Source of the DNA: Neocallimastix sp. 'constans'
Taxonomy: Eukaryota
Assembly: GCA_050613775.1 (NCBI GenBank)
Contig: JBODTK010000121.1
Coordinates: forward strand, 310,001 to 374,000
Length of the DNA: 64,000 nucleotides
Direction of reading: 5' to 3'
Below, in pieces: positions 25,462 to 64,000 of the stretch. The notes under the pieces were generated by a model. It had not been told where the DNA came from. It did no database searches and saw nothing but the letters and a program-made list of their open reading frames with translations. Each line of letters starts with the position of its first letter. Position 1 is the first letter of the stretch. The position numbers were made by a program, and so were the translations under genes.

Positions 25462-25530
25462 AAAAAGTTGGTGTCGAACCTAAGGGTTCAGCCCGATTGT
25501 TATGGCAACTTACCATTGAACCATAGTTAC
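25462..25530 (-). ncRNA. Putative RNA polymerase III unit (type-2 internal promoter), tRNA-like but not a canonical tRNA
   Basis: Minus strand GTAACTATGGTTCAATGGTAAGTTGCCATAACAATCGGGCTGAACCCTTAGGTTCGACACCAACTTTTT has A box TGGTTCAATGG at +8, B box GGTTCGACACC and a T5 terminator. No acceptor stem or proper T stem can be formed. Confidence 0.6.
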
Positions 25531-26567
25531 TAATTTACTAATTTCTGGTAAAGAATGAATTAATAACCTTTATTTTATTATTAATAATTCTTTACTGAAT
25601 TGTACTTTCCTATATTCTTGATAACCTAAACTTAATAATAAAATTTAATTTATTTTGATATAAATTAATTTTAACTTGTAAATAATGTAAATAAATTTTA
25701 ATTAATTATTTTATTGTTATATTATTAAATATATGTATATTAAAATACAATTGTAAATATTAAAATTATACTTTCAAGATACTAAACTATTAAAACTATT
25801 AATTAAATATTATTATAAAAATTATTATAAAATTATTAAAATTATTAATTAAATATTATTCTAAAAATTATTATAAATTATTAATATTATAAAATTATTA
25901 AAATTATTAAATATTAGTATAAAAATTTATATATTGTAACTATTAAATATTATTATAAAATTATTAAGATTATTAATTAAATTTATTATTAAAAATTATT
26001 ATTAAAAATTTTTACTTATTATAAAAATTATTATTTAAATATTATCAAATTTATTAATTAAATATTATAAAAATTTTATTTTATTTTGAAAATAATTACA
26101 AGTATTATTTAAAATAATTAAAGATTATTAAATTTATTATATTAATCTTTAAAAACAATTTATTTTACTTAAAAATATCAAAGAAAATAGTAAAAACTAT
26201 TTTCTATATATTTATTTTATAATTATTTTTAATTAAATTATATTTGAATATTATATTATTATATTTATAAAAATTAAAACAAAAATGAATTATTGATATA
26301 AAATTAATTCAATAATTCTATAAAATTACTTAAATTATAAACAATTAATTATACTTTAAATTTATAAAAAAATATAAATATTGTAACAATTTCTTAAAAA
26401 TTAAATATGTGTACTTTAAATAATAAAATTTTATATTAATAAAAAAAAATAAATAACTTTTAATAAAGAATTATTTTTTTTTTTTTTTTAAAATCAAAGC
26501 AGGGTAATACCCGTCCCCCCCTGCTTGATTTTAAATATCTAAGTGTCAACCCCGAGTCTACCAAAAT

Positions 26568-26585
26568 TGGTGGAGATATCGGGGA
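26568..26585 (+). promoter_or_regulatory. Primer binding site of E1, complementary to tRNA-Ala 3' end (same sequence in E2 at 35167-35184)
   Basis: TGGTGGAGATATCGGGGA; reverse complement ...CCCCGATATCTCCACCA resembles eukaryotic tRNA-Ala 3' ends. Confidence 0.8.
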
Positions 26586-27175
26586 AGAAGAAGAAGAAGA
26601 AGAAGAAGAAGTAGAAGAAGAAGAAGAAGAAGTAGAAGAAGAAGAAGAAGAAGTAGAAGAAGAAGTAGAAGAAGAAGAAGAAGAAGAAGTAGAAGAAGAA
26701 GAAGAAGAAGAAGAAGTAGAAGAAGAAGAAGAAGTAGAAGAAGAAGAAGAAGAAGAAGTAGAAGAAGAAGAAGAAGAAGTAGAAGAAGAAGAAGAAGAAG
26801 AAGTAGAAGAAGAAGTAGAAGAAGAAGGAGAAGAAGAAGAAGTAGAAGATGAAGAAGAAGAAGAAGTAGAAGAAGAAGAAGAAGAAGTAGAAGAAGAAGA
26901 AGAAGAAGAAGTAGAAGAAGAAGTAGAAGAAGAAGAAGAAGAAGAAGAAGTAGAAGAAGAAGAAGAAGAAGAAGAAGAAGAAGAAGAAGAAAACCAAGAA
27001 GAAAACCAAGAAGAAGACCAAGAAGAAGACCAAAAAGAAAACCAAGAAGAAGACCAAGAAGAAGACCAAGAAGAAAACCAAGAAGAAGACCAAGAAGAAG
27101 ACCAAGAAGAAGACCAAGAAGAAGACCAAGAAGAAGACCAAGAAGAAGAGACCAAGAAGGAGAAGACCAAGAAGG
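26584..27175 (+). repeat. Purine-rich (GAA)n microsatellite with GTA interruptions, grading into a 12-nt GAAGAAGACCAA repeat
   Basis: Direct reading; lies immediately after the PBS in the E1 leader. Confidence 0.95.
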
Positions 27176-27266
27176 AAATTGGAACTACTAGGACTTATTT
27201 TTTTTTTGGAATTATGAGAATAATTTTTTTAAATTAAATTTAATAGAATTAAATTAAATTAAATTA

Positions 27267-27313
<47 letters not shown>

Positions 27314-27878
27314 CACACTTTTACAATCATCATCATCAAATTTTTTTTTATTGTTATCGGTTTTGTGTTGTTGTTGTGGTTGGTGTTGTTGTTGTGATTG
27401 TTGTTGTTGTGGTAGTAATAAAAATTAACATCAGTTTTATTTGGTCTTCGCGTGCTCCAAATAAAACTATATACTGAGTTTACTGCGTACTAAGCAGTTA
27501 TAGATAATTCTATAATTGCGAGTGGTTTAATCAGGTGTTTGGAGAGGGGCCGGTTACGAACTAATCGAACCCCGATTAGATATAGCGGTAAATACTGTTG
27601 GGAAGCAGAAATTACCCTATAGATCACCCATTATACGTTCAACACGGTTTGGGTGCTCCTCCACTTGACTCAGGCAAATTCACTTAGTATACCGAAATAC
27701 TAAGGTCCCTCTGCGTGGTCGGCAGTTGTAATAGATAGCGGTTTTTCAAGTTGTATTAGGTTTGTTAATTTACCTTGTTTTTAATTAAGTTTATTTGTTT
27801 TTTTTAAGTTGTAATTATATAAACTTAATAATAATTGTAATTGTAATTGTAAATATTGTAATAATAACCGATAACAAA

Positions 27879-27909
<31 letters not shown>

Positions 27910-28280
27910 AATATTAATTTTTGTGTTTTTAAATATTTTTAATTGCTATATTAATAAACTTTTTTTTTGTAAATAATTGTACATATTTTTTTTATTTAAG
28001 TAAAGATAAACGAAAGGGGTTATTAGCTTGAAAGAATAGTGAACACTCCAACTAGTTTATTAATTTATATTTATTCTAGTGTCCAGGAGGGGGAGTACGG
28101 GTGTATATAGCAAAATTAAATATACACTAGCCGGAAACGTCTCACTAGAGATATAAATTACTTAAATATATAATTTTAATTGTAAATAAATAAATAAATA
28201 AAAATATAGCAATTAAATAATTAATAAAACAATTTTTTTTTTATTTTTTTTTTATAAAGTGTGTTTTTTTTTTTTTTAAA

Positions 28281-28510
28281 ATGAGTTCAATTAATTTTAA
28301 AGATTTAAAAAAGGAACTTAAGGATATTGAAAAAATATCCAAAGAAAATTTAGATGTTAAAACTTGGAAGTATGATTTAGAGCTTTGGATAAAGCTTGAA
28401 CATGTTGAAGACTCCAAGATTATATTTTATGCCTGTGTTTTAACCTCAATTGGTGAAACCAGGAAAGTCATCCAAGAATTAATGGATGATAATAATAAAG
28501 ATGATGATAG

Positions 28511-28544
<34 letters not shown>

Positions 28545-29228
28545 AATTATAAGGATATTAATGATGAAGATGAGGATGATGATAATGAAGAAGATAAAGA
28601 AATTGATAAAAAGAATAAGGCTTATCCTTCCCTTAATAGAATTGTAAAAGCTATAGAAGAATTTTATGGCATTAGGGAGGATCAAAATAATTTATTAAGA
28701 GAGCTACGTGCTCTAAGAATTAAGAGGAATGAAAGAATCAAAGATTTTAATATTAAGTATAAAACTTTATATTTAAAATTAAATAAAAAGAAAAGAAGTC
28801 AGATAAGTGTTTTAGATTACACAGACTCCATTGAAAACAATGTTGAAGCCTGGAAACGTCTAACCTTATTTGATAACATTTCTCTGTCAAAAGCCTTTAA
28901 AATTGCTGAAAAAGCAGATAGGTTAAATTATATGGGTAGTAATCAAAGAAGACATCCTTCTACCCCTTCACCTTCTGCAAATATATCTTCTTTTAATAAT
29001 AGAGTTAATTTTCATCCTCCTATTAAAAATAAATTAGAACAAAAAGTTAATATTAAACCTAAAGAAGATAATGACATAGAGGAATTAACAAGAAAAATGA
29101 GAAGTTTAACAATAAAGGCTTGTTATTTCTGTAAAGAACCAGGTCATTATCAAAACAATTGCCCAAAGTTGAGAGCAATTGTTGAGAAAAATAGGAAGGA
29201 AATTAGAAACAATAAACGTTTAAATTGA
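28281..29228 (+). CDS. gag: E1 Gag with acidic insert and CCHC zinc knuckle
   Basis: 315 aa; CYFCKEPGHYQNNC; ends at T TTA AAT slippery site. Confidence 0.9.
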
Positions 29229-32200
29229 GTAATGGGATAAGAAGCTCTCCCATACTTAATAAAGCAGCTTCAATTAAATATCAAAAAGAAATTAAAAATT
29301 CTCGTCTTTCTAATATTGAAGAAATTCCTGCTAATAAAAGGGTGGTTAATAAAAAGAAAGTTGATTATTTAGTAGGAGCATCTAAACGTAAAATTTATGA
29401 TGTTAATAATGATGAAGGTAGTGCAGAGAAAAGGATTCATAAGTCGTTGAAGGAGAATCCTAAACCTATAATAACTCCTGCATTACGAAAACAGAAAGAA
29501 CGAGAAGTAAAAGAAAATAATATAAGTAATAAAATTGTTAAACAAATTAAACCATCTATTCTAGCTCAACCACGAATTGAAAAAGAAAAAGAGATTGAAA
29601 GACAAATTCGTGATAATGAAAGAGCTAGTAATAGTAATACTAATTATAGTAATAATCATAGTAATGATAATAGTAATGATAATATTAATAATAATTCATT
29701 AGTGAATGATGAATTTATTATAAATAATGTAAATAATGATAAAAGAAAGAATAAAAATTTAATGAAAGAAAATAATGATAATAATAAAAGTATTGTGAAG
29801 GAGAATAATAAAGTAATTGATTTAACATAGGTGTTAATTAGTAAAGATAAAGATACTCAAAAAGAAAATAAAAGTTCTAGAGTATCTAGGAAAATTAAGA
29901 TGCAATCGGGGGAAGAAGAATATGATATTCTTAAAGATTTAAATTCTGCCCATTGCAATATTACTTTTGGACAGTTATTGGATGCTGCTCCAAAATTAAG
30001 ATATAAGGTGTCACAGGGTATTAAATTGGATAGGGACCAATCTAATATCTCTGGGGTGTTGGATAATGTGTCAGCCACGACTGTGGTCGTTAATAACATA
30101 GACCACACTTATAAAAGTAAAGGTAACGAACCATGTGAAGAGGATATTGCCATGGTTGATGTTACAGTTGAAGGTGTTTCGGGGAAGGCTTTAATTGATT
30201 CATGTAGTAATTTAAGTATAATTACTCAACAATTTTTAGATAAGCTTCCGTCCGAATATGAACCTATTGATATTAGTCGTGGCAGAATTAGGTTGGCAAC
30301 TAAGAATGATGATTACTCGGAAGGTTATATCATTCGGGTGCCAGTAAAGATTAATAATCTTGTATTAATGGTTAATTGTAGAATAGTAGAAAAGGAGGAT
30401 CCTTTTTACGATATTCTAATTAACTTAAAAACCCAAATTGATTATAATTTGTTTATCCACCCCATTTTATATAGTTTGTGTCAAATTACTCCTGAGGGAG
30501 TAATTGACGTTATTGCACCTATTAATAATGATTATGAAGATGAAGAAAAGTTGTTGTGTATGATTAAGGCTTTGGATGAGGATTCCAAAAAGAATGATTT
30601 AAAGAAAATTGAAGGATTATCCCCAAAGCAATATATTCATCATGAAATTTTCCTAAATACTTTAAACAAAAAATATAAAGATGAAATAATTAAAATTCTG
30701 GAGGAGAACTTAGAAATAGTTGCTACTTCTTCAGAAGAATTAACACCTTCTGATCTTCCTCCACATAAGATTAATTTAATTCCTGGTGCGAAACCAGTTA
30801 AGCAAAGGTGCTATAGATTAGTTAAATTTAAGTCGGATATACTTAAGGAGGAATTAATTAAATTAATTAATAAGAAATTAATTGAACCTTCTTGTTCCGA
30901 ATGGTCATCGCCAATAGTGTTAGTACCGAAGAAGAACGGTAAATGGCGATTATGTATTGATTATCGTAAGGTTAATGATTTAACAGTTAAAGATTCTTAT
31001 TCATTACCTTACATTGATGAGATATTTGATAGTTTAGATGGGGCACAGATTTTTACAACAATGGATCTTTACTCTGGTTATCATCAAATTTTGATGGATG
31101 AGGAAAGTGTAGAAATTACCACCTTCACCACAAAATTTGGTAACTACCAATTCAAGGTTATGCCTTTTGGTTTAACCGGAGCCCCAGCTACATTTCAAAG
31201 GGAAATGAATAGGATTCTTTTCCCATTTATAGGAAAGTTTGTTTTTAACTTTATAGATGATATTTTAATATACTCTAAGAGTATAGAAGAACATATAAGC
31301 CACATTAGGCAAGTGTTGGAAGTATTTCGCCAACACAAGTTAAAAATTAACATTGAAAAATGTGCCTTTATGCAGACTGAAGTAGAAGTCTTAGGTCATA
31401 AGGCATCAGTGAAAGGTTTAAGTCCCCAGGATAGCAAAATTAAGGCTATCAAGGAGTGGGTAGCACCTGTTGATGTTCATGAATTACGATCTTTTCTTGG
31501 AGCAGTAGGATATTATAGAAACTTTATTGATAAATATGCCCAAATCTCTGCTCCTTTATGTAAATTATTAAGAAAGAATGTTAAATATAAATGGAATAAT
31601 GAACATCAACAAAGTTTTGATCTGTTAAAAGAAAAGTTAATAAATGCTCCAATTTTAAAATATCCAAGTTTTAATCAAAGGTTTATAATTAGAACGGATG
31701 CTTCCTATGAAGGTATTGGAGGAGTATTACTCCAAGAAGATTTAGAAACCAAAAAGGAACATCCAGTTCATTATATAAGTAGAAGTTTAAGTAAAGCCGA
31801 GAAAAATTATGGCATTACTGACTTGGAAGGAGCTGCATTAATTTATTGTATTACTAAGTTGAAATCTTATATATTAGGAAATCCTAATAAAACAGTAGTT
31901 ATAACAGATCATAAACTTTTAATCAGTTTCTTTAAAAATAAGGAACCTAATAATGCTAGGCAAGCAAGGTGGTGCTTAACTGTTAGTACCCTTGGTGTTG
32001 AAATTCAATATCAAATGGGTAAGAAAAATGTGTTAGCCGATGCATTATCTAGGATGAAGAAAAGAGCTGATTCTGTGGTATTGGCAACTAAGTTAACTTC
32101 AAAGGAAGAAGAAGAGTTGCTTTCAAAAACTATTAAAGACTTTATAAATGAAAAATTTGTTACGATAGATGGTGAAGATTACTTTGTTGATGGTAATGAC

Positions 32201-33274
32201 TATCGTAAATTAATTACTGATCAAACGGAAAAAGTAAAACTTATTTTAGAAGCCCATAAGATAGGTCATGAGGGATATTATAAGACTTATCAAAGGCTTC
32301 GTAAAAGTTTTTATTGGAATAATATGGTGATGGATATTAAAAGAGTGGTGCAAAGTTGTGACAAGTGTCAGTTGAATAGGTCACAACCATATCCAGAACC
32401 TACAGAAAATATTCCAACTAAAGTAGAAGGTCCTTTTATACATTTGGGTTTAGATATTATTGGACCTTTGATTAAAACGAAGAATAATAATCAATATATT
32501 ATGGTTGTGGTGGATTACTTCACCAAATGGGTTGAAGCAGAACCCACGGAAAATATAACATCACAGGATGTGATTAAGTTCTTAATTAATGTGTTTGCTC
32601 GTCATGGTGTTCCACAGGTAATAACAACTGACAATGGTGTTCAGTTCACCTCGGACATGACGAAAATATTTTTAGATCTCTATGATGTATATGTGAAGTT
32701 TATTTCCACATATCATCCTGAAAGTAATGGACTTACGGAAAACCGTAATAAAGAGATCGGCAAGTTATTGAGGTTGTTGGGTTCTAAGAATAAGGATTGG
32801 GATGAAGTTTTACCATCCGCCTTATGGGCTCTTAGAACTACCAAAAATAAGGTAACAAAACATTCAAGTTTTGAGTTGGTTTATGGTAGGGAGGATCAGC
32901 AGCCTTTTGATATTGCTGCTAGACCTACCAAGGATATTAATAAGTCATCGGATGAAGTGTTGTTAGAAAAATTTATAAATCATTACCGATGGACTTTAGA
33001 AGCAGCCGAAAATGTTAAAAATGCAAATAAGTATTGGGCTGCTAGAAGAGAGGAAAAGAATAGTTTGAATGAGGGAAAAAGAATTAGGGAAGGTGATTTA
33101 GTTCTAGTTAGAAATTTTTCAAGAACTAAACTAGAACCTTATTTTGTTGGTCCTCTTAAAGTTATAAAAAAACAATTTAATACGGTTACCTTGGCTGATC
33201 CAAATTCTGGAATTCAAATGAATAGGAATGTTCATTTGAAGAATATAGTCAAGTATAACTCAGCTTCGATGTAG
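29225..33274 (+). CDS. pol: E1 Pol (protease, RT, RNase H, integrase) in -1 frame to gag, interrupted by in-frame TAG at 29828-29830
   Basis: ALIDSCS (protease), FIDDILIYS (RT), TDASYEGIGGVL and TDH (RNase H), HHCC zinc finger, LDIIG/TDNG/E integrase core; no chromodomain. Confidence 0.92.
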
Positions 33275-34805
33275 CTTGAGTTTTAGAGGGGGCATCATGG
33301 TAAAGAATGAATTAATAACCTTTATTTTATTATTAATAATTCTTTACTAAATTGTACTTTCCTATATTCTTGATAACCTAAACTTAATAATAAAATTTAA
33401 TTTATTTTGATATAAATTAATTTTAACTTGTAAATAATGTAAATAAATTTTAATTATTTTATTGTTATATTATTAAATATATGTATATTAAAATACAATT
33501 GTAAATATTAAAATTATACTTTTAAGATACTAAACTATTAAAACTATTAATTAAATATTATTATAAAAATTATTATAAAATTATTAAAATTATTAATTAA
33601 ATATTATTCTAAAAATTATTATAAATTATTAATATTATAAAATTATTAAAATTATTAAATATTATTATAAAAATTTATTTATTATAACTATTAAATATTA
33701 TTATAAAATTATTAAGATTATTAATTAAATTTATTATTAAAAATTATTATTAAAAATTTTTACTTATTATAAAAATTATTATTTAAATATTATCAAATTT
33801 ATTAATTAAATATTATAAAAATTTTATTTTATTTTGAAAATAATTACAAGTATTATTTAAAATAATTAAAGATTATTAAATTTATTATATTAATCTTTAA
33901 AAACAATTTATTTAACTTAAAAATATCAAAGAAAATAGTAAAAACTATTTTCTATATATTTATTTTATAATTATTTTTAATTAAATTATATTTGAATATT
34001 ATATTATTATATTTATAAAAATTAAAACAAAAATGAATTATTGATATAAAATTAATTCAATAATTCTATAAAATTACTTAAATTATAAACAATTAATTAT
34101 ACTTTAAATTTATAAAAAAATATAAATATTGTAACAATTTCTTAAAAATTAAATATGTGTACTTTAAATAATAAAATTTTATATTAATAAAAAAAAATAA
34201 ATAACTTTTAATAAAGAATTATTTTTTTTTTTTTTTTTAAAATCAAAGCAGGGTAATACCCGTCCCCCCCTGCTTGATTTTAAATATCTAAGTGTCAACC
34301 CCGAGTCTACCATTTTTGATAAGAATGTACTAAATAATGCATTCTTAATTAAATCTACGATTTATTTCTAATACATTATGTGTACATTATTATTTTTGTA
34401 CTTTAATAAATTTTTAAATCCAAAGATCAAAAATTAAATCAAAAATTATATTAAACTTTATATTTTTATATTAAATCTTATATTAATAGTAATATTTTTA
34501 TATATTTAAAACTTATATTAGCAATATTAATAATAAATCTTATTTTTTTTTATATTAATAATGAAAATTTATATTAATAATATTTTTATATATTGATAAT
34601 TAAAAATTTATATATTATATTTTAACTTTTTATTATAAAATTTTATATCGAAATGTTTTATTTTATATTGAAAAATATTTTATTTTATTAAAAACCTTTA
34701 TATTAGAATAGTATTTTTATTTTTATTTGAATATTTTAACAGATTGTAATAAAAATTATAGCCAATTAAATAAATTCTTATTAGTAATATTTTAAATATT
34801 TTTAA

Positions 34806-34846
<41 letters not shown>

Positions 34847-36196
34847 TTTTATTAATATTATAAATGTATTTTATTTATATTGTTATAATTAAATTTTATA
34901 TAATTAATTATAAAAATCAATTTAAATTTAATAGTTTTTATAAAAAAAAAAAATAAATAAAATGTAATTTAGTGGCAAGAACAACTTTTATGCCTTGAAA
35001 AAAGTATAAATAGTTGTAAATTTTGCTACTAATTTTTAAATATCATCAAATAAAATCAAATAAATTTAATAAAATAAATAAATAAAATAAATAAATAAAT
35101 AAATAAATAAAATTTGTGTTTCTTTACTTTATTTTTATTTAATTCTCTAAAACCTTAACATTTATATGGTGGAGATATCGGGGAATTAAATAGAAATAAT
35201 AGTAAATAACATAGATTTTTTTTAATTTTTTTTTTATTTTATATTGATAAACAAGTAAGTCGTTAATCCTTTGATTAACCTATGGCGCTTGTTTGATATA
35301 TATATATAAAAAAAAAAAAAAAAAAAAAAATTTTTTTTAAATAAGTAAAATTAAGATTCTAAAAAAAAAAAAAAAAGATTGTAAATTATAACAAGGAGCG
35401 GATAGAGCTCATACACAGTGTATTTCCAGAAAACAACAAAATATCTATTATTCATAGTAGGTTATTGGATAATAGTTATTTTGGGAATTAATTGGAAAGT
35501 AGACGAAGGTATTTGGTTACCGACCCGGTAATAATAGTTCAGCCTTCAACGTTTCAACACACGAAGGTGCGGGTACTTTCCAAGCACTGGCGAATAAGGA
35601 GCTTACGTCACCGAAGGCGTAAGATTGTTTTTTTTTATATTTTTTTTATTTTTCTTTGTGCTAGTTATAAGGCACTTTATTATATAAAGTATCAGACTTT
35701 GGCTAACTTCGACATTTAAATTTTTTTTTTATTTTTTTTTATTACTGGTACTTTATTTGTTATATAATTCCTGTAATAGAATCTTAATTTACTTTGAAAA
35801 TATTGTGTTTTTAGTTAATTTTTATTAGTTAATAAAAATATTATTGAATACTTTTAAATTTTTTTTTATTCCGTACATAGATTATCGGATTAAGTTTATC
35901 CTACATAGTAATTGGGCTAGTAGGCTCTGAACTGCTATATTTTATATTGAATATAGTAATCGTGGCACACACGTGGCATGACACCATTAGGTAAGCTGCA
36001 CGTCAGACAGTGTGTACTATCAGATTGTACGACAATAAAGATTATTTTTTGTGTTTAATAATTATAATTAATAATTTTATTAGCTATAACAATACAATAT
36101 TTATCGTTTAAAAAGAAAAATTTTTGAAAGGTGAAAATAATAAATAAAACTTTGCTTCTAAATTTATTACTACAAATATACTAAATTACAAAATTC

Positions 36197-36466
36197 AAGT
36201 GGTCGATAAAGATTTCGAGCTTGAAAAATATTCTATTAAGTTGTCGATAAAGATTTCGAATTTAAAATTATTCTATTAAGTTGTCGATAAAGATTTCGAA
36301 CTTAAAATTATTCCATTGAGTTGTCGATAAAGATTTCGAACTTAAAAATTATTCTATTGAGTTGTCGATAAAGATTTCGAACTTAAAAATTATTCTTAAT
36401 AAAGTAGTCGAAAAGAACCTCGTGCTTTATAATTTCTACTAAGTTGTCGATAAGGATTTCGAGCTT
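36197..36466 (+). repeat. Seven tandem ~40-bp units (AAGTTGTCGATAAAGATTTCGAACTTAAAATTATTCTATT) in the E2 leader
   Basis: Units start near 36197, 36238, 36278, 36318, 36359, 36402 and 36441; each is an imperfect inverted repeat. Confidence 0.9.
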
Positions 36467-36641
36467 ATATCTACTAAAGAAAGCAAATAAAATTATTATT
36501 TTCAAAAGTTACTAAAATATATTGTTTTAAAAATTGATTCTATATTAAATTACCTATTAAATTATATTTTTAAAGTTGTATTTCCAAATTGATTCTTATT
36601 TAATCACCTCATTAATATACAACAAGAAATATTTAAACAAA

Positions 36642-42812: not shown

Positions 42813-42853
<41 letters not shown>

Positions 42854-46813: not shown

Positions 46814-46974
46814 ATTTTGTTACGGAACTAGCCAAAATACAATAAACTAATGATTTAAATTATACAATTCGAAATTATAATTAAATTTAATAACTTTATA
46901 TGTTAATTAATTTAAACTATTTTTATAATTTCATAATTTTATTTTTAATTTAAAATAATTATATAAATTATCAA

Positions 46975-47226: not shown

Positions 47227-47771
47227 ATATTAATTAAATTGATTTATTATTATATTTAATTATTATTTATATTAAAATGTTTTAAGAATTATAATATCGA
47301 AAATGTTATCAATAATTTTATTGTTAAATTTATTAATTTTATCATTATTAATATTTTGTCATTAAAAATAATATTAATTATATTAATATTAATATTTTTA
47401 TTATTAAAATAACTTTTAAAAATATTATTAAAATCACATGTAATAATTAATTCTAATAAGAATTAAAATAATTATAAAATTCATGTAGTAAAAAAAAAAT
47501 ATAAAAGAAAAAGAAAATACTTAATAAAAAATTTAAGAGTTAATAAAAGATAAAAAAAAATCTAATTATTAAGAATATATTATTTTTGAAAATAAAAATT
47601 TAAATTATTCGAAATCCTGCAACATTTGGCGAGCTATGCAGGACTCAATCAAAAATAATATGAAAATTGATAATTAAAAATAAAATATTGAGTTAAAAAT
47701 AATTAATTGTTTTAAAAAAAAAAAAAAAAAAATTTTTTAAAAAAAAAAAAGTGAAAAGAGAAGAGTAGAAA

Positions 47772-52520: not shown

Positions 52521-55401
52521 AAAGGGGGCGTCATGTTACGGAACTAGCCAAAATACAATAAACTAATGATTTAAATTATACAATTCGAAATTATAATTAA
52601 ATTTAATAACTTTATATGTTAATTAATTTAAACTATTTTTATAATTTCATAATTTTATTTTTAATTTAAAATAATTATATAAATTATCAAATTAAATTGA
52701 TTAATGACTAATTATTAAATTATTATTATTTTATTAAATTGATTAATGACTAATTATTAAATAATTATTATTTTATTAAATTGATTAATGACTAATTATT
52801 AAATAATTATTATTTTATTAAATTGATTAATGACTAATTATTAAATAATTATTATTTTATTAAATTGATTAATGACTAATTATTAAATAATTATTATTTT
52901 ATATTAATTAAACTGATTTATTATTATATTTAATTATTATTTATATTAAAATGTTTTAAGAATTATATTATCGAAAATATTATCAATAATTTTATTGTTA
53001 AATTTATTAATTTTATCATTATTAATATTTTGTCATTAAAAATAATATTAATTATATTAATATTAATATTTTTATTATTAAAATAACTTTTAAAAATATT
53101 ATTAAAATCACATGTAATAATTAATTCTAATAAGAATTAAAATAATTATAAAATTCATGTAGTAAAAAAAAAATATAAAAGAAAAAGAAAATACTTAATA
53201 AAAAATTTAAGAGTTAATAAAAGATAAAAAAAAGAAAATCTAATTATTAAGAATATATTATTTTTGAAAATAAAAATTTAAATTATTCGAAATCCTGCAA
53301 CAATTTGTTGTAAGAATCTATAATTATTTTTAACAAAATAATTATATTTTCTTAGTTAGGTTATAATTAATATAACTTTTATTAAACTCATATGTCATTT
53401 ATACAATTAATTATAATTAATAATTTATTTAATTATATATTAAAATTTTATTTAGTTTAATATTAAAAATTTATTTAATTAAATAATATTTATACATTTA
53501 AAATAATATTAAATTTATTTAATTATTCACTTAATTATTAAATTTATTAGTTTTAGTTTTCTCTCACTTATTAAATCATAAACTAAAACACTATTCTGTA
53601 TTTTATCATGTATTCTGTATTCTATCATGTATTCTGTATTGTATTAATCATGTATTTTATTATTAATGTATTGTTTTATATTTTTTATGTAAAGTTCTAT
53701 AAAATAGAACTAAATAGATTAAATTTTAAATTTTATGATCGAAATAATTTTCATTGTTTTATTCTTTTATTTTCGATCATTATATTAGATTAAGTAATCG
53801 GTTAATTAAGGTTTTTCCAATTACTTCTTAAAAGTAATCGGTTTTACTTAATTAACGCGACGATCGATATGGATAGAATATCGATCAAAAAACTTATCTA
53901 GGTTTTTCTTCTAGTCTTTTCCTAGATAAGAGATTTGTTAAGATTAGAACCCCTTTTGATTTTAACCTTATTTTGAAAAAAAAGTATAAATAAGGCTCTT
54001 GAGTTCTCTTTGAGAAATCAAGAGTTATTATTATAACAATTATAATATAATAATAATAACAATAAGTTTTAACATTTAAAATTTTTAATAAAAAATAAAA
54101 CAAATTATTTTAATAAAACAAATTTTATAATTAAAACTTTTCCTTATCAATTTTAGTGTTTCGTCTATTATAATTCGTTATAATAAACTCGATAATTAGA
54201 AAGAACCATAGGTAAGTATGATTCTTTTCTAAACCTTTAATATTAGCAGTTAGAGCTAATATTAATGATTAATAATTTAATTATAATTTTTTAATTAAAT
54301 TATTACAATAATAACTCTTCTTAGTATAGTTTAATAGAATAGTTAATTAATTTAATAATATAATTAATTTCTAGAATCAAGTAGTACAAAATAATTTAGT
54401 GTAGTACAATAAAAATTTTTATGATTGAAAATAAATAAAATAATATAAATTATATAGAATAATCTAGAAATTAAAAAAATAAATTAATATATAGTAAATA
54501 AATTAAATATTAAAATATAAGTAGATAATATTAGTAAATCAGATCAAAAATCATTAATTAATAATTTAGTATAGAAATTATAAGAATAAATTAATATAAA
54601 CCATAAATTAAATATTAAAAAATAAGTAAATAGTAATAATTAATTGGATAAATAATTAAAATCATAAAAAATTAAAAGAATAGATATATAGTAATAAATA
54701 ATAATAAATAATAATAAATAATAATAAATAATAATAAATAATAATAAAATAATAATAAATAATAATAAATAATAATAAATAATAATAAATAATACTAAAT
54801 AATACTAAATAATAATAAATAATAATAAATAATAATAAATAATAATAAATAATGATAGTAAATAATAAATGATAAATGATAAATGATAAATGATAAATAA
54901 TAAAAAAAATTAAACAACAATAAATAGCAATAATAAAATAAATAATAACAATAAGAACACATAAATACACTAACATATGTTTACATGATTTTAGGGAAAT
55001 AGAACTGGAAGAAGTAGGCCAAGGAAACAATATAGAAGAACCAAGACTTAGTACAGACCTTAGAAGCAGAAGTGTGTTAGCATCTAGGTAACAGTTTCCG
55101 GATTAAGTTTATCTGTCACAGGCAGCGATCTGGGCAGCTCTGGACTGGCCTATCCGATGTGTGGTAGGTTGCAATCGTGGTGTACGCGGGAACATGACAC
55201 CAGTAATAGGCAAGCTGCTCCCGTCATTAAGTACATACTACTGTTTACTGCTAACGTGCTTCTGGAAAATCGTCTGGAAATGCTTGAGTATTTTCTTATT
55301 CAACTGTTTTCTTTCGCCAAAACTTCCTAACTATGACCTTATAATCATAATAAACATATATATATATTTCATAGTTAATATAATTTATAATTTAGGTAAA
55401 A

Positions 55402-56145
55402 ATGGAATCCAATAGTAATAACGCCCAAATTCCAAGTGAGGTTGAATCCTCAAAGCTTATAACAGCTTTAACAGAATTTATTCCTACCTTCTTTTCCGCC
55501 GACGTAGTGTTATCCAAGGACTTAGCTGATAACAACAAACTTAACGTTAATGAGCTCCTGGAACAGAGTGAATTGTTTTTTAAAAAACATCCCAACTCTT
55601 TTTCCACGGACGACTTAAAAATTTCTTATGTTATCAGCATGTTACATGGACCTCCAAAGAAATGGGGACTTTCATTGAAGGCTGATGGAACTTTAAATTC
55701 GTTAAGCTATGACACCTTTAAAGATATTTTGATAAGCAATTTTGGGGATACTAAAGAACAGAAGGATGTTCTTATTGAACAACTTCTAAACTTAAAACAA
55801 CTTCATTTAGGAAGAGCCGCATTATATACTATTGAATTTCGAAGGTTAGCTGGACGTATTGGATGGCCGGACGATGTATTCATTGACCTAATCAAAAGAG
55901 GTCTTCTTGAGGATGTTAAAACAGAGTTCAATAAATTAGACAAACCTAAAAGTTTATTTGAGGCAACAAATTCTATTATCAATATTGATAGAAAATGTTT
56001 ACTTAAGCAAAAAGTAAAGACCAATGACTACAAGCCAAAGAGTAGTAAATCTTTCAAACGAAAAAGAAACGAAACTAACATGACCGAAAACAAATTTAAA
56101 CGCAATAAGCGCCATAAGGGACGAGACAATGGAAGTATTTTATAA
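55402..56145 (+). CDS. gag: E5 Gag (retrotransposon capsid-type, basic C-terminus, no CCHC knuckle)
   Basis: 247 aa; FSTDDLKISYVISMLHGPPKKW...YTIEFRRLAGRIGW. Confidence 0.85.
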   Translation: MESNSNNAQIPSEVESSKLITALTEFIPTFFSADVVLSKDLADNNKLNVNELLEQSELFFKKHPNSFSTDDLKISYVISMLHGPPKKWGLSLKADGTLNSLSYDTFKDILISNFGDTKEQKDVLIEQLLNLKQLHLGRAALYTIEFRRLAGRIGWPDDVFIDLIKRGLLEDVKTEFNKLDKPKSLFEATNSIINIDRKCLLKQKVKTNDYKPKSSKSFKRKRNETNMTENKFKRNKRHKGRDNGSIL

Positions 56146-56175
56146 GCAAATTACACCCCAAGTCATAATAATAAA

Positions 56176-59100
56176 ATGACTACAACTTTCTTGTTAACCG
56201 TTAATAACAAAAAGATTAAAACCAGAATCCTTATTGACTCGGGCTCTGCTAGAAGTTATCTCTGCAAAAGCTTCGTAACAGCAAACAAAATTCCTTATTC
56301 AAACCTCTCAAATACGATCAATGTAAAACTTCCTAATGAAAAGAATATGGCTATAAAACAAGTTACAAAACGTCTTAAGCTTACTTTCATGGACCATACG
56401 GAAACATTTGAATTCTTTATAGCCAATTTACAACTTCAAGACGTATCTGCAATCCTTGGAAGAGATTGGTTAAGCCTTCATTCACCCTACATTGATTACA
56501 AAAATAATAAAATTTACTTCTTGGAAAGCTACTGTAAAAACCATTGCCCTTCTGCTAAGGGTAATAGGTTTGTTTTCCATTCATCAGATATTACTGCTTC
56601 TCTCTTACCCAATAATGAACAGAAGGAAGAAATTCCTCTTGACTCAATAATTCCAGATTCCATACCTGAAGACGAACTTAGCGATATGAACATTTGCGCT
56701 GCTTTAGTTCACAATAGTGAAATTAAGAATACCAAAAGAAATAAAAAAACAATTAAAAAATATTATTATGACCTTTGTATTGTATTTGAAAAGAAAGAAG
56801 CTGATAAACTCCCTCCACACCGTGTTTATGATATATCCATTGATTTAGTTCCCTGTGCTCAACTTTATTTTGGACCAATTTATTCGTTGACTGTTGAAGA
56901 AAAGAAGGCACTTCTTGAATACATTAAGGAAAACCTTGCTAAAGGATTCATTAGAAAATCAAAATCTCCTGCTGGTGCCCCGGTGCTATTTGTTAGAAAA
57001 CGTGACGGTTCTCTTAGACTTTGTGTTGACTATAGAAAGCTCAATTCTATCACCATTAGAAACAGTTATCCAATTCCTAGGATATCTGATTTGATAGAAT
57101 CATTTAAAGGTGCTATTATTTTCTCTCGGCTTGACTTAAGATCTGCCTATAACTTAGTTCGTGTCAAGAAAGGCCATGAATACCTTACTGCTTTTCGTAC
57201 TCCTTTTGGTCATTTTGAATACCGTGTAATGCCTTTTGGTTTACGTAATGCACCTTCGGTTTTTCAACGCTTTATCCAAGACATTTTTTCTGATGATATT
57301 GGCTTGTTTCTCTTTGTCTACTTAGATGACATTATAATATATTCGAAAAACCTTACTGAACATATTAAACATGTTCATCATGTCCTTTCCTTGTTAGTCA
57401 AAAATGGTCTCTATGTAAAACTTGAAAAATGTGAATTTCACGTTCCTGAAACTACTTTTTTAGGGTTTGTTGTATCAATAAATGGCCTTTCTATGGATAA
57501 AAACAAAGTAAAATCAATTCTTGAATGGCCTACTCCAAAAAACATGAATGAACTTCAAAGTTTCCTCGGACTCTGTAACTACTATAGGAAATTCATAAAG
57601 AATTTCGCCATAATTATGGAACCCTTAAGAATACTCCTCAAGAAGAATAACGAGTTCAAATGGAATGATGATGCTGAGAATGCCTTCAAAAAATTAAAAC
57701 TTGCTTTTACCACAGACGAAATCCTTATCTACCCCGATCCAGATAAGGAATTCACTGTTGAAACTGATGCCAGTGATTTTGCTGTGGGTTGCATTCTTTC
57801 TCAAGTCAGTGACAAGGATAACGAACTTCACCCTGTCGCTTTTCATTCTAGGTCTTTGTCATCTTCTGAATTAAATTATACAATATATGACAAGGAACTA
57901 CTCGCTATTATCACCGCTTTTGAAACCTGGCGTCACCACCTTGAAGGGGCTAAGTTTCCTGTTCAAATCATTACCGATCACAGGAATTTATTATATTTTA
58001 AAAAGCCTCAACATTTAAACCAACGCCAGATAAGATGGAGCCTCTTTCTTTCTAAGTTTGACTTTAGGATTTCGTTCAGACCTGGATCAAGGTGTGGTAA
58101 ACCAGATTCGTTGTCGAGACGTCCGGATTATAATTCCGTGGTTTCCCTCCACAACAAAGACAGTCCTTTATTGGATGATAATGCCTTTTGTTGTGCAAAC
58201 ACTATTATCAGTAGCTTGATTGATACCCAACCGACTGACAAATTTTGTGGATCAAGGAGTAGTGAACCAGATTCGTCGTCGAGACGTCCGGATTATAATT
58301 CCGTGGTTTCCCTCCACAACAAAGACAGTCCTTTATTGGATGATAATGCCTTATGTTGTGCAAACACTGATAATATTAGTAGTTTGATTGATGCCCAAAC
58401 GGCTGACACATATTGCAAATCTATTTTAGAAAAGATTAAAACTAAGTCAAACACAGTTAAAAGTTCTTTATTTTCTTTAAATGAAGGGGTCTTACATTTC
58501 CAAAACAGAATCATCGTCCCATCCACTTTAAGAGCAAGAATTTTGAAATCTTTTCATGATTCACCCACCAACGGACACCAAGGTATTGACAAAACTCTTG
58601 ATAAAATCAAGAGATACTACTGGTGGCCTAATATGAAGAAAGATATTCATAATTATGTACTTTCTTGTTCAACTTGTGCTAGGTGTAAAATTCGTAGACA
58701 TAAACCCTACGGAAAAATTCAACCGTTGCCTGTTCCCAATAAACCATGGGAAATTATTGGGGTTGATTTTATAGTTTCGTTACCTAGTTCACAAGATTGC
58801 ACATGTATTATGGTGGTTTCGGATCACTTAACAAAGATGATCCATTTAGTTCCTTGCTCCGACGTCCCTTCCGCTGACCTGACCGCCAAGATGCTCCTTT
58901 ACAACGTTTTTCGGTATCATGGATTCCCTAAAATCATTGTCTCTGATCATGGCTCCCAGTTCTCTTCTGAATTTTGGACCTCACTCTGCTCAGCTCTAAA
59001 TACTAAGCCAAGACTCGCTACTGCTCATCACCAACAAACAAATAGTCAAGTCGAAAGGGCTAATTCCGTAATCGAACAATATTTACGATGCTACTGTTCT

Positions 59101-59601
59101 ACTGCCCAAAATGAATGGTGCTTTTATCTACCTCTTTGTGAAATGGCTTATAACAACTCATTTCACAAATCTATAAACATGTCGCCTTTCTGTGCAAATT
59201 ATGGTTTTAATCCAGTATGCAATATTGACTCTCCTCCTGTTCTTTTAAAAGATAATGCCTCTGTACTTACTAGGGATTGGTCTGCCCATTTTGATGCCCT
59301 TAAAAAGCACCTTATCAAAGCTAAAGAAGATTTCAAAAAGTTTGGTGACTCTAGGAAAGCTTCTGGTCCTACTTTCCATGTTAACGACATGGTTTGGTTG
59401 AAAAGGTATTACTTCTCCAATGAACCTGCAAAAAAGCTTTCTAACCAGTATCTTGGACCCTTTAAGGTCATAGAAGTGAGGGAAAGAATGAACTACCGGC
59501 TTGAATTACCAGAAAATCTTCATTTACACCCGGTATTTCATATCTCGCAGTTGGAGCCTTATACTGAAAGAGACATAGGATTAAAGGAACCATCACCATA
59601 A
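56176..59601 (+). CDS. pol: E5 Pol (PR, RT, RNase H, IN) in the same frame as gag after a TAA; carries a 55-aa internal duplication
   Basis: LIDSGSA, YLDD, ETDASDFAVG, HHCC, VDFI/SDHG/E and GPF motifs. Confidence 0.93.
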   Translation: MTTTFLLTVNNKKIKTRILIDSGSARSYLCKSFVTANKIPYSNLSNTINVKLPNEKNMAIKQVTKRLKLTFMDHTETFEFFIANLQLQDVSAILGRDWLSLHSPYIDYKNNKIYFLESYCKNHCPSAKGNRFVFHSSDITASLLPNNEQKEEIPLDSIIPDSIPEDELSDMNICAALVHNSEIKNTKRNKKTIKKYYYDLCIVFEKKEADKLPPHRVYDISIDLVPCAQLYFGPIYSLTVEEKKALLEYIKENLAKGFIRKSKSPAGAPVLFVRKRDGSLRLCVDYRKLNSITIRNSYPIPRISDLIESFKGAIIFSRLDLRSAYNLVRVKKGHEYLTAFRTPFGHFEYRVMPFGLRNAPSVFQRFIQDIFSDDIGLFLFVYLDDIIIYSKNLTEHIKHVHHVLSLLVKNGLYVKLEKCEFHVPETTFLGFVVSINGLSMDKNKVKSILEWPTPKNMNELQSFLGLCNYYRKFIKNFAIIMEPLRILLKKNNEFKWNDDAENAFKKLKLAFTTDEILIYPDPDKEFTVETDASDFAVGCILSQVSDKDNELHPVAFHSRSLSSSELNYTIYDKELLAIITAFETWRHHLEGAKFPVQIITDHRNLLYFKKPQHLNQRQIRWSLFLSKFDFRISFRPGSRCGKPDSLSRRPDYNSVVSLHNKDSPLLDDNAFCCANTIISSLIDTQPTDKFCGSRSSEPDSSSRRPDYNSVVSLHNKDSPLLDDNALCCANTDNISSLIDAQTADTYCKSILEKIKTKSNTVKSSLFSLNEGVLHFQNRIIVPSTLRARILKSFHDSPTNGHQGIDKTLDKIKRYYWWPNMKKDIHNYVLSCSTCARCKIRRHKPYGKIQPLPVPNKPWEIIGVDFIVSLPSSQDCTCIMVVSDHLTKMIHLVPCSDVPSADLTAKMLLYNVFRYHGFPKIIVSDHGSQFSSEFWTSLCSALNTKPRLATAHHQQTNSQVERANSVIEQYLRCYCSTAQNEWCFYLPLCEMAYNNSFHKSINMSPFCANYGFNPVCNIDSPPVLLKDNASVLTRDWSAHFDALKKHLIKAKEDFKKFGDSRKASGPTFHVNDMVWLKRYYFSNEPAKKLSNQYLGPFKVIEVRERMNYRLELPENLHLHPVFHISQLEPYTERDIGLKEPSP

Positions 59602-60612
59602 AGGGAGCAATGTAAGAATCTATAATTATTTTTAACAAAATAATTATATTTTCTTAGTTAGGTTATAATTAATATAACTTTTATTTAACTCATATTTCAT
59701 TTATACAATTAATTATAATTAATAATTTATTTAATTATATATTAAAATTTTATTTAGTTTAATATTAAAAATTTATTTAATTAAATAATTTTTATACATT
59801 TAAAATAATATTAAATTTATTTAATTATTCACTTAATTATTAAATTTATTAGTTTTAGTTTTCTCTCACTTATTAAATCATAAACTAAAACACTATTCTG
59901 TATTTTATCATGTATTCTGTATTCTATCATGTATTCTGTATTGTATTAATCATGTATTTTATTATTAATGTATTGTTTTATATTTTTTATGTAAAGTTCT
60001 ATAAAATAGAACTAAATAGATTAAATTTTAAATTTTATGATCGAAATAATTTTCATTGTTTTATTCTTTTATTTTCGATCATTATATTAGATTAAGTAAT
60101 CGGTTAATTAAGGTTTTTCCAATTACTTCTTAAAAGTAATCGGTTTTACTTAATTAACGCGACGATCGATATGGATAGAATATCGATCAAAAAACTTATC
60201 TAGGTTTTTCTTCTAGTCTTTTCCTAGATAAGAGATTTGTTAAGATTAGAACCCCTTTTGATTTTAACCTTATTTTGAAAAAAAAGTATAAATAAGGCTC
60301 TTGAGTTCTCTTTGAGAAATCAAGAGTTATTATTATAATAATTATAATATAATAATAATAACAATAAGTTTTAACATTTAAAATTTTTAATAAAAAATAA
60401 AACAAATTATTTTAATAAAACAAATTTTATAATTAAAACTTTTCCTTATCAATTTTAGTGTTTCGTCTATTATAATTCGTTATAATAAACTCGATAATTA
60501 GAAAGAACCATAGGTAAGTATGATTCTTTTCTAAACCTTTAATATTAGCAGTTAGAGCTAATATTAATGATTAATAATTTAATTATAATTTTTTAATTAA
60601 ATTATTACAATT

Positions 60613-61454
60613 TGGTAAAGAACGAACATATAATAATTATTAATTAGAAATTCAACTTACTTTAGAATCCATTATATTATTCTTTACTTAATATTACTTT
60701 ATTATATTTTCTATACTAAAATATTTTCTAAATATATATATATTTTTTTTTATATTTTTATTAAAAGTTTCTAAAATATTATCAATAATTCTATATTTTT
60801 ATTATTAATATCAATATCTATAATTTAACCTTAAATTTTATTATTTTATTAAAGTGTTTATTATCAATATTAATATTTTATTTTTATTTTCAAATATATT
60901 ATTATATTATTATTATATTGTATTAATATTAAAATTGTATTCTTTTTAGTATTTTATTTTATTTTTAAATTGATTATTTAATATTTTTATTCCCCACAAA
61001 TAAAATCAATTCTTAATTGATTGATAATAAATATTAAATATATTATAGTTTTTAAATTTATTTTATATAAAATATAAGAATATTATATTAATAGTCTTGA
61101 TTAAAATAACTTTATTTTTCTGTAAAATCTTTTTAAATTTTGTTTGTTTCTTTTTGTATATATTAAATAATTTAGTTTTAGTATATGAAAAATAATATAA
61201 AATTATATAAACAAAATTTATTAAAATAAAAATATTTATGAATTAATTAATTTAAATTAATATAAAATTGAAGTAATTAGTAATAGTAGATTATTTTTTT
61301 TAAATATGATAACAAAATGTAGAAAGGCTTTACATATTTATTTTTTTTTCAAAAAGTATAAATAAGTGAAGTTTTTCAAGAATTAAAATGTAGACAGAAA
61401 AATATTAAAAATAAATAATTAAATAAAAATTCTAATAAAACCCGAACCATAACA
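60613..61454 (+). mobile_element. Solo LTR, distantly related to the E1 LTR
   Basis: Starts TGGTAAAGAACGAA (E1: TGGTAAAGAATGAA), shares ATTCTTTACT, ends AACCCGAACCATAACA (E1: AACCCCGAGTCTACCA); no PBS follows. Confidence 0.75.
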
Positions 61455-61458
61455 AATT

Positions 61459-61925
61459 TGATACGTAACCACTATAAAAATGGTATTTAGGTAGATTCTT
61501 TAGCTTAAAGAAATACTTAAATATTATTGGTCAATAATAATTTTATAATAATATATATAATTTTAGAATAATAATTATTATACGGAGAATTCTTTTATTT
61601 ATAAGTTTATACTTATGATAAATTAATTCACATAAATAACTATTTTATATTTTATTTTAGTATAGTTAAAAAGAGATATTATATATATTTGAGATAATTA
61701 ATTATAATATTTATATAAGAGAGTAATAATAATAATAATTTATGTAATAATTAATAATTAATAATAAATAAAGAGAACATTAAAAAGATATAATATTACT
61801 TTATTTTGTATTATTGTATGTGTTATTTCTATTTAATATTAGAATATATTATTTTGTCATAATTCCTTATTGTCATTGCCCATAAATAAATATTAATTTA
61901 GATATATAAATAAAATACCGTATCA
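61459..61925 (+). mobile_element. Solo LTR of the E3 3'-LTR family, flanked by AATT on both sides
   Basis: Highly similar to 46350-46813; AATT at 61455-61458 and 61926-61929. Confidence 0.93.
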
Positions 61926-61929
61926 AATT

Positions 61930-62399
61930 TAATACGTGACCACTATAAAAATGGTATTTAGGTAGATTCTTTAGGTTAAAGAAATACTTAAATATTATTG
62001 GTCAATAATAATTTTATAATAATATATATAATTTTAGAATAATAATTATTAAACGGAGAATTCTTTTATTTATAAGTTTATACTAACGATGATAAATTAA
62101 TTCACATAAATAGCTATTTTTATATTTTATTTTAGTATAGTTAAAAGAGATATTATATATATTTGAGATAATTAATTATAATATTTATATAAAAGAGTAA
62201 TAATAATAATAATTGATGTAATAATTAATAATTAATAATAAATAAAGAGAACATTAAAAAGATATAATATTACTTTATTTTGTATTATTGTATGTGTTAT
62301 TTCTATTTAATATTAGAATATATTATTTTGTCATAATTCCTTATTGTCATTGCCCATAAATAAATATTAATTTAGATACATAAATAAAATATCGTATCA
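61930..62399 (+). mobile_element. Second solo LTR of the E3 3'-LTR family (5' TG mutated to TA)
   Basis: Highly similar to 61459-61925 and 46350-46813; followed by AATT. Confidence 0.93.
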
Positions 62400-62405
62400 A
62401 ATTTT

Positions 62406-63383
62406 TGTAAGAATCTATAATTATTTTTAACAAAATAATTATATTTTCTTAGTTAGGTTATAATTAATATAACTTTTATTTAACTCATATTTCATTTATA
62501 CACCTAATTATAATTAATAATTTATTTAATTATATATTAAAATTTTATTTAGTCTAATATTAAAAATTTATTTAATTAAATATTTTTTATACATTTAAAA
62601 TAATATTAAATTTATTTAATTATTCACTTAATTATTAAATTTATTAGTTTTAGTTTTCTCTCACTTATTAAATCATAAACTAAAACACTATTCTGTATTC
62701 TATCATGTATTCCGTATTGTATTAATCATGTATTTTATTATTAATGTATTGTTTTATATTTTTTATGTAAAGTTCTATAAAATAGAACTAAATAGATTAA
62801 ATTTTAAATTTTATGATCGAAATAATTTTCATTGTTTTATTCTTTTATTTTCGATCATTATATTAGATTAAGTAATCGGTTAATTAAGGTTTTTCCAATT
62901 ACTTCTTGAAAGTAATCGGTTTTACTTAATTAACTCGATGATCGATATGGATAGAATATCGATCAAAAAACTTATCTAGGTTTTTCTTCTAGTCTTTTCC
63001 TAGATAAGAGATTTGTTAAGATTAGAACCCCTTTTGATTTTAACCTTATTTTGAAAAAAAAGTATAAATAAGGCTCTTGAGTTCTCTTTGAGAAATCAAG
63101 AGTTATTATTATAACAATTATAATATAATAATAATAACAATAGTTTTAACATTTAAAATTTTTAATAAATAATAAAACAAATTATTTTAATAAAACAAAT
63201 TTATAATCAAAACTTTTCCTTATCAATTTTAGTGTTTCGTCTATTATAATTCGTTATAATAAACTCGATAATTAGAAAGAACCATAGGTAAGTATGATTC
63301 TTTTCTAAACCTTTAATATTAGCAGTTAGAGCTAATATTAATGATTAATAATTTAATTATAATTTTTTAATTAAATTATTACA
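62406..63383 (+). mobile_element. Solo LTR of the E5 family
   Basis: Colinear with 53309-54307 with a few substitutions and one fewer internal TATTCTGTATT-type repeat. Confidence 0.95.
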
Positions 63384-63387
63384 ATTT

Positions 63388-64000
63388 TGTTACGATACAA
63401 ATAATAAATAAAAAATAAATAAAAAATTAAATAAACTATTAAGATTAATTAATAAATAAATAAGAATAAAATACTAAAGTATTAAAATATATAATAAGGA
63501 AATTAAATAATGTATAAATAATTAAATTATTTAAAATAATGTATTAATTGTATTTATTTAATATTGTAATAGTAAACAATTAGATATTTTATTATAAATA
63601 ATTAAAATTATATTTATTATTATTTTATATTTTTATTATAAAATTTTTATTATACTTTATTATATTTTTATTATTATCTTATATTAAATATTATATTAAA
63701 ATTATATTTTATTATATTTATTATTATAAAATTATTATATTTTTGTTATTATATTTTTATATTTTTATTTTTATTTTTACTCCAATCAAATAAATGTTTT
63801 AATGATATAAAAAGAACAAAGTAAAAAAATACTTTAGTTCTTCCTCTTCTTTCAACTTTATTTTTATATTTTTCTTTTAATTTTTCGAGAATGAAATAGT
63901 AAATATTTAGTATTAGTATTAATAAATAATTAAATAAATAATTATATAAAATTAAATTTTTCTATAGTTAAATTGATTAGTTTTGTTTTTGTGTTTTATT
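63388..64000 (+). mobile_element. Start of another LTR-like unit, cut by window end
   Basis: TGTTACG start after ATTT spacer, same junction pattern as all other units; sequence differs from the E4 LTR after the first 7 nt. Confidence 0.6.

Follow-up and report, generated by a model that had tools for sequence, protein, structure and literature searches.

Stacked Ty3-type retrotransposons beside an A/B-box cassette carried in another element's long terminal repeat in Neocallimastix

Introduction

How do at least ten retrotransposon units come to lie end to end beside a single promoter-like motif? The question is raised by a 64-kb stretch of DNA from Neocallimastix sp. 'constans' (contig JBODTK010000121.1; hereafter the window), which is very AT-rich and in which long terminal repeat (LTR) units of Ty3 type adjoin an A-box/B-box pair. 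A sequence-only reading of this DNA had proposed repeated insertion at one point beside an RNA polymerase III (Pol III)-type promoter. The present analysis covers the window and contigs from public sequencing runs. Pol III targeting by LTR elements is known from yeasts and social amoebae (PMC5911963, PMC7175516, PMC5006619), and Ty3 integration is described as tethered by TFIIIB (PMC5911963). A literature search, with most subscription journals outside its coverage, returned nothing on Pol III targeting by elements of gut fungi, on multi-family LTR stacks of ten units or on A/B boxes within LTRs that serve as targets, and the available part of bioRxiv 2022.12.06.519325 contained nothing on stacks. 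We consider it fairly probable that two deep lineages, both using Ty3/Tj1-like tethering to Pol III factors, built the stack on a mobile promoter that resembles Helenus.

The units abut at a probable common target point

Self-comparison and mapping of element ends showed that at least ten Ty3-type LTR units abut across 25546-64000 and beyond, with zero host DNA in between. Counted from the A/B-box side they comprise five longer units (E1 to E5), four solo LTRs (S1 to S4) and a final unit, U11. The TG...CA ends are intact at each junction, and where one unit cuts into another it does so by 1-2 bp at most. Nine units share one orientation, with transcription directed away from the A/B cassette. 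The spacers are, in order, TTTT, TTT, ATTT, ATTTGT, ATT, AATT, AATT, AATTTT and ATTT, exactly as the sequence-only reading had given them. Its description of ten abutting units in one orientation over more than 38 kb, free of host DNA, held for the abutment and for the orientation of nine units; the orientation of U11 is not fixed.

Exact flanking direct repeats, the target-site duplications (TSDs), were present in seven of the nine complete units and were 4 bp long, or 5 bp in the case of S4. The flanks of E1 (TTTC/TTTT) differ at one position in four and those of E5 (ATTTGT/ATTTGG) at one in six. Given the local composition, an exact TSD is expected by chance with p = 0.025 per unit, and seven or more in nine units with a probability of 2e-10, although adjacent units share spacers and the tests are not fully independent. 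The TSDs indicate that each unit is a separate integration, neither a complementary DNA (cDNA) concatemer nor a mis-join. If the units are removed one by one beginning at the anchor, a procedure that assumes a polar order, the TSD starts all fall at 25540-25542, a single 3-bp window within a common target at 25540-25545, and the spacers remain 3-6 nt. The junction between polypurine tract (PPT) and LTR was intact at all five internal 3' LTRs, none of which had an insertion in front of it; the target is therefore something other than LTR sequence as such. The earlier claim that lineages with different primers had inserted repeatedly and independently at one point was supported by this chain of TSDs and by the divergence between E5 and the other coding units described below.

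An ordinary heterochromatic or centromeric pile of retrotransposons, lying near an A/B box by chance, would be expected to show nesting and mixed orientation, in contrast to the minimal interruption and shared orientation seen here. None of the four integrases in the stack has a chromodomain (Pfam), which also speaks against such a pile. In its favor are the lesions present in all four coding units and the nested setting, in which the stack lies within an LTR and this LTR within a copia remnant. On balance we regard a chance pile as very unlikely.

The A/B-box anchor

The cassette beside E1 lies on the minus strand. An A-box-like motif occupies 25513-25523, starting at 25523, and a B-box-like motif, the only one in the window, occupies 25470-25480, starting at 25480, 43 nt from the A-box start. 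Both boxes are intact, their spacing is canonical, and a G equivalent to position +1 is present at 25530, 7 bp before the A-box. This is the single A-box/B-box pair in the whole 64 kb, and none of 200 shuffled windows produced one. The upstream distance from the +1 G equivalent is 16 bp for the start of E1 and 10-15 bp for the TSDs; at this one locus the insertions thus fall, as in Pol III targeting, no more than about 20 bp upstream of an A/B unit. Both the opposite-strand A/B unit beside E1 and the Ty3/DGLT-A-like distance claimed from the sequence (15 nt in that reading, 10-16 bp as measured here) were upheld.

The anchor was considered as a host tRNA gene and rejected, as ARAGORN found no tRNA and there was no cloverleaf with acceptor stem and anticodon arm. 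No Rfam family matched the anchor, and the cassette folds no better than shuffled sequences (z -0.2 to -1.1). A TTTTT run at 25462-25466, which might pass for a terminator, was also set aside; it is a variant of the window copy, and other copies interrupt the run with a different base. A scan for the anchor motif gave 0 hits in metagenome contigs and 0 in viral contigs. Four matches in GTDB genomes extended over a 20-mer only, were not tRNA genes and were taken as chance.

The insertions could have been directed to the end of the surrounding LTR by some other DNA-binding protein or by DNA structure, the A/B boxes being a tRNA-derived relic. The cassette contains two short palindromes and has no tRNA fold, and the window copy differs from the common form of the cassette by several percent. 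Pol III activity at the cassette is a prediction. Against such targeting stand the intact boxes with their canonical spacing and +1 G, and an insertion distance that matches three known Pol III-targeting systems. We consider targeting without Pol III factors unlikely, and tethering by those factors remains our preferred reading.

The anchor is part of a high-copy LTR

Public runs with the best matches include faecal metagenomes. Contigs from 4 of 24 runs, X1, X3 and X8 among them, were compared with 25340-25660 only, and the listing covered 24 of 126 loose ends as well as 32 of 2376 contig pieces. X3 and X8 possibly belong to one campaign and X1 is possibly the source sample, so the runs are not counted as independent studies. 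Contig depth is used only as a rough guide to copy number.

The anchor was present at high copy in all four runs, on contigs at depth 1670-4107 compared to 27-53 for diverged copies. In the four runs other copies extend beyond 25540 as GTTATGAG..., and in three runs they reach GTTAC(A). GTTACA, exactly 18 nt past 25540, is also where the main X1 contig (depth 1929) terminates, as expected at the end of an element, and TGTAAC at 24981 in the window mirrors this end. Read in reverse, the X3 loose end, and that loose end only, gives a purine tract, CAA and TGTAAC, resembling the PPT junction of E5. A TATA motif, similar to those of E1, E2, E5 and S1, occurs on the minus strand only. The terminus at GTTACA, the PPT-like flank and the strand of the TATA motif indicate that the anchor forms the U3 end of an LTR that is on the minus strand and measures about 575 bp. 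This LTR of another element (24981-25545, minus strand, presumed left boundary), with the A/B cassette at its U3 end, is designated the H-LTR. The first ~12 bases of the window H-LTR are missing, either displaced or deleted. The anchor belongs to a high-copy LTR and is no host Pol III gene, a context that the sequence-only reading had missed; the A/B motif of its proposed Pol III-type promoter was confirmed.

To the left, a decayed Ty1/copia gag remnant (24398-24980, plus strand) breaks off where the H-LTR begins. It matched DUF4219 at E=9e-6, below the curated cut-off, and gave weak matches to copia/Ty5 gag; its frame stops at TGTAAC 24981. A search for homologues of the remnant, made to fix the H-LTR boundary, found none. 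Upstream of the remnant, at 23700-24040, are two short GC-richer patches with related motifs, possibly the ends of another mobile element.

Some contigs bear on insertion at other H-LTR copies. In X3 the main contig breaks off at the offset of E1, 6 nt past 25540. A loose-end consensus in X8, built from four contigs with an agreement of 0.69, continues from position 8 as GATAAAGAAC, which resembles the starts of the E1, E2 and S1 LTRs. Parsed in this way, this mixed consensus gives a hint of another H copy in which an LTR sits at E1's offset in a different target sequence. One X1 contig carries an LTR-end-like ...CCGAACCTTAAC directly before an E1-type LTR start, a junction that is absent from the window and that therefore likely represents head-to-tail junctions elsewhere. 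In X1 the H-LTR sequence that follows the cassette (25340-25450) had about twice the depth of the cassette itself, and thus there may be H subfamilies without the cassette or with a diverged one.

The same contigs bear on whether the array might be an assembly concatenation of repeat contigs. The anchor-E1 junction was unbridged among the 32 of 2376 pieces listed, as a concatenation would predict. Such an origin is hard to reconcile with seven of nine exact TSDs, intact TG...CA ends, lesions and LTR differences specific to individual copies, and an LTR-LTR junction that occurs in X1 short-read contigs as well. We regard it as highly improbable.

Two lineages of Ty3-type elements in the stack

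Eight LTR families are represented in the stack: E1, E2, two LTR types in E3, E4, E5/S4, S1 and U11. E1, E2, E4 and E5 have the paired TG...CA LTRs, primer binding site (PBS) and PPT of Ty3/gypsy (Metaviridae) elements, and all four pol open reading frames (ORFs) have the order reverse transcriptase (RT), RNase H, integrase. The pol products of E1 and E2 are 76% identical and that of E4 is 48-56% identical to them, compared to 37-38% identity over RT-RNase H between E5 and E1, E2 or E4. A tree of RT-RNase H (43/44 sequences, midpoint root, no named reference elements) splits E5 from E1, E2 and E4 and resolves nothing more. The PBS of E5 is complementary to 54020-54031 in its own LTR, a 12-nt match just downstream of a TATA motif; E5 is thus of the self-priming Tf1/Tj1 kind, in which the PBS complements the 5' end of the element's own transcript. 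The primer binding sites and the E5 self-primer were as described from the sequence; the two tRNA primers are presumably tRNA-Ala and tRNA-Arg.

E5 does not read as a chromodomain-bearing chromovirus, given that there was no Pfam match and that the protein stops after an SH3-like domain. Among the relatives listed, PF00385, which we take to be the chromo domain, was found by hand count in 0 of the 19 closest to E5 compared to 83 of 101 others. The best PDB match of the E5 integrase was Ty3 Gag-Pol 7Q5B (E=2e-50). For E1 pol the named relatives are mostly Orpsp1 gene models, which we read as Orpinomyces, the best at 75% identity; they point to a likely host among the anaerobic gut fungi (Neocallimastigomycota). 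An alignment search for relatives gave only distant elements (31-49% identity, 78 + 4 loci) that are uninformative on targeting, and neither E1 nor E5 pol had a match in viral contigs.

E1 (25546-34312, plus strand) is a Ty3-type element with LTRs of 1018 and 1015 bp, a tRNA-type PBS, gag and pol, the latter with a nonsense codon. E2 (34317-43167, plus strand), also of Ty3 type, has LTRs of 844 bp and a PBS identical to that of E1, with a stop in gag and a frameshift in pol. E4 (46818-53302, plus strand) is a Ty3-type element with LTRs of 807 and 769 bp, a different tRNA-type PBS and an in-frame stop in pol. E5 (53309-60609, plus strand) has LTRs of 999 bp and a nonsense codon. All four coding units are therefore damaged. 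Programmed read-through at the E1 and E5 stops was rejected because sister proteins have K and S at those positions. Between the RNase H and the integrase of E5 lies a 165-bp duplication that keeps the reading frame (58083-58415); it is a family trait, since 1399-aa sister proteins are collinear with E5.

E3 (43171-46813, plus strand), which had been read as one element, is a composite. It has a 1192-bp 5' LTR and PBS, a gag-like ORF as its only coding content, a PPT and a 464-bp 3' LTR. The two LTRs share only their termini and do not pair, and the 3' LTR is 94-95% identical to S2 and S3. E3 likely arose by deletion between neighboring units.

The solo LTRs are all on the plus strand. S1 (60613-61454) is a family of its own, S2 (61459-61925) and S3 (61930-62399) belong to the family of the E3 3' LTR, and all three have the TSD AATT; the terminal TG of S3 is mutated to TA. 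S4 (62406-63383) is 97% identical to the E5 family and has the 5-bp TSD ATTTT. U11 (63388-64000) is an LTR-like unit that runs off the window end.

Several features of the interiors were recorded. In the tRNA-primed elements the gap between LTR and PBS is 2-8 nt (26564, 35161, 44363 and 47625) and a 5-nt spacer separates the G-tract from the 3' LTR (33293 CATCA, 42319 CATCT, 46345 CGTCT and 52529 CGTCA), which suggests cDNA overhangs longer than the usual two bases. A GAA-type repeat of about 600 nt (26586-27170) immediately follows the E1 PBS and yields four low-complexity ORFs. Tandem repeats of about 41 nt are found in the E2 leader (36197-36467), and 42-nt repeats in the E4 LTRs (46883-47392 and 52599-53066), which differ by one unit. 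GC-richer islands in the leaders of E1 (27500-27760) and E2 (35390-35625) are weakly similar (z=2.2; 6 of 200 shuffles did as well).

A leader motif of about 140 nt is common to E2 (35886-36019) and E5 (55099-55240), with 65% identity (z=12 against shuffles), in contrast to pols that are just ~38% identical. Of 45 predicted pairs 13 change on both sides, as judged from two sequences only, and folding of the single sequences is weak (z -1.9 and -0.04). No Rfam family matched the motif, and none of the 18 viral loci that fit its gapped pattern aligned beyond chance. It is possible that the motif is a shared cis-acting RNA element or was captured.

Comparison with known systems

The stack shares with Ty3 of S. 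cerevisiae a Ty3-type pol and insertion a few bases from the Pol III start. Ty3, as described in the passages available, is one family that inserts at host genes in both orientations, whereas the stack holds about eight families in one orientation at a mobile-LTR target (PMC5911963). Tj1 of Schizosaccharomyces japonicus is reported to be self-priming, to make a 5-bp TSD and to keep a fixed orientation when it inserts, at a point 5-11 bp upstream of the mature tRNA end. In self-priming and TSD length it is matched by E5/S4, and the orientation of the stack is likewise fixed. In that account the targeting determinant of Tj1 is still an open point (PMC4600332). DGLT-A, a Ty3 element that also lacks a chromodomain, inserts about 15 bp upstream of tRNA genes (PMC5006619). 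TRE5-A resembles the stack in forming tandems without nesting and in using A/B-box loci that lack a tRNA context; like the anchor, these loci have a G placed 7 bp before the A-box. It differs in being a non-LTR element with insertion at about 50 bp (PMC5391098). Neither a multi-family LTR stack of ten units nor an A/B target within an LTR is described in the passages on DGLT-A and TRE5-A (PMC5006619, PMC5391098).

The closest parallel to the H-LTR comes from Helenus/Cassandra (TRIMp3) elements, which occur in fungi, have many solo LTRs, and whose LTRs carry a tRNA-like cassette with conserved A/B boxes and no tRNA fold (PMC10886601). An A/B-box tRNA-like cassette is likewise found inside the H-LTR. 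According to the sections consulted, Helenus LTRs are at most 323 bp and whole elements 311-1263 bp; fungal Helenus is copia-driven, has a PBS and a PPT, makes a 5-bp TSD and is reported from Pucciniales and Agaricomycetes (PMC10886601). The H-LTR differs in its length of ~575 bp, which depends on the presumed left boundary and exceeds any reported there, in its TATA motif and in its E5-like PPT junction, and use of the cassette as an integration target is not described in that text (PMC10886601). We do not assign the H element to Helenus; what was observed of it is the LTR and, in the X3 loose end, a PPT-like tract.

Proposed mechanism and order of insertion

Starting from what was observed, namely the units, their TSDs and distance, the orientation of nine units, and the copy number and LTR context of the cassette, the remaining steps can be modeled. 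By analogy with Ty3 and TRE5-A, TFIIIC would bind the cassette and position TFIIIB, and integrase would cut at the start site. The integrases of the units would be tethered by these Pol III factors on the cassette and the units would land successively, each new element inserting between the cassette and the previous unit. Because the promoter is internal, the cassette would survive insertion and the target would be regenerated. Older units would lose their interior by LTR recombination to become solo LTRs, or recombine, as E3 may have done. The H-LTR family, finally, would spread target sites across the genome.

A number of observations weigh against this reading. Tj1, in the account cited, inserts in the orientation opposite to that of the stack units (PMC4600332). 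Paired LTRs differ by 6 of 1014 positions in E1, 2 of 844 in E2, 4 of 765 in E4 and 4 of 999 in E5 (0.24-0.59%), and the dating by LTR divergence envisaged in the sequence-only reading gave no age gradient (heterogeneity chi2 p=0.69). E1, supposedly the newest unit, is nominally the most diverged and also has a TSD mismatch. Parsimony of the TSDs assigns the polar order 2 mismatches and the reverse order 3, provided that a 6-bp TSD is allowed for E5; with TSDs of 4-5 bp the polar order costs 4 and the reverse 3, and a strict 5-bp TSD for E5 makes the polar order unfeasible. At a cost of 2, 757 of 1500 random orders tie with the polar order. The window H copy departs from the common form exactly at the target (ATTTC versus GTTATG), the cause being uncertain, and H copies in the runs mostly look unoccupied. 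The want of a bridging anchor-E1 contig and the zero depth of X1 and X8 at 25461-25471 also belong here, and neither proves anything by itself.

These results bear on the claim that the stack is a polarized record of insertion. TSD parsimony fixes no order beyond 'E5 after S1', which follows because the E5 duplication includes the TG of S1. The five full units all precede the four solos along the stack, an arrangement expected 1 time in 126 by chance. The claim was thus supported in part, by these two features, whereas dating by LTR divergence and ordering by TSD parsimony were both uninformative.

If the anchor had served the first insertion only and later elements had targeted the short AT-rich junctions between LTRs, the stack would grow at any junction and keep no time order. 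TSDs that agree with many orders and flat LTR ages fit such a history, as does the second LTR-LTR junction in X1. Targeting of junctions would not account for the perfect segregation of full elements and solos, for spacers of 3-6 nt that unwind to a single 3-bp window of TSD starts, or for the five internal 3' LTRs that have no insertion before them. We judge it unlikely, and retain repeated insertion beside the cassette as the more probable course.

Significance

The structure is real and unusually clean, and its new aspect is probable Pol III-type targeting in which the target is itself mobile. Pol III targeting is likely extended here to an early-diverging fungal phylum and would be common to two deep Ty3 lineages, with the LTR of another transposon as the likely target instead of a host gene. 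If so, Helenus-type tRNA-bearing LTRs would gain a role beyond their own transcription, and the arrangement would help explain the build-up of retrotransposons in the large AT-rich genomes of this phylum without hits to genes. The convergence of several integrases on a 3-bp window in one orientation provides a natural set for finding the targeting determinant. Site-specific native integrases would also be of interest for engineering anaerobic gut fungi.

A broader proposal, which we offer tentatively and would not yet call the expected outcome, is that an LTR-borne Pol III promoter might be a portable, self-regenerating target for a guild of unrelated Ty3 lineages, both tRNA-primed and self-priming. 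If this is true, one transposon family would decide where others land, and the H-LTR would seed 40-kb single-orientation stacks that record the order of invasion and would serve as a sink, sparing the tRNA genes of the host.

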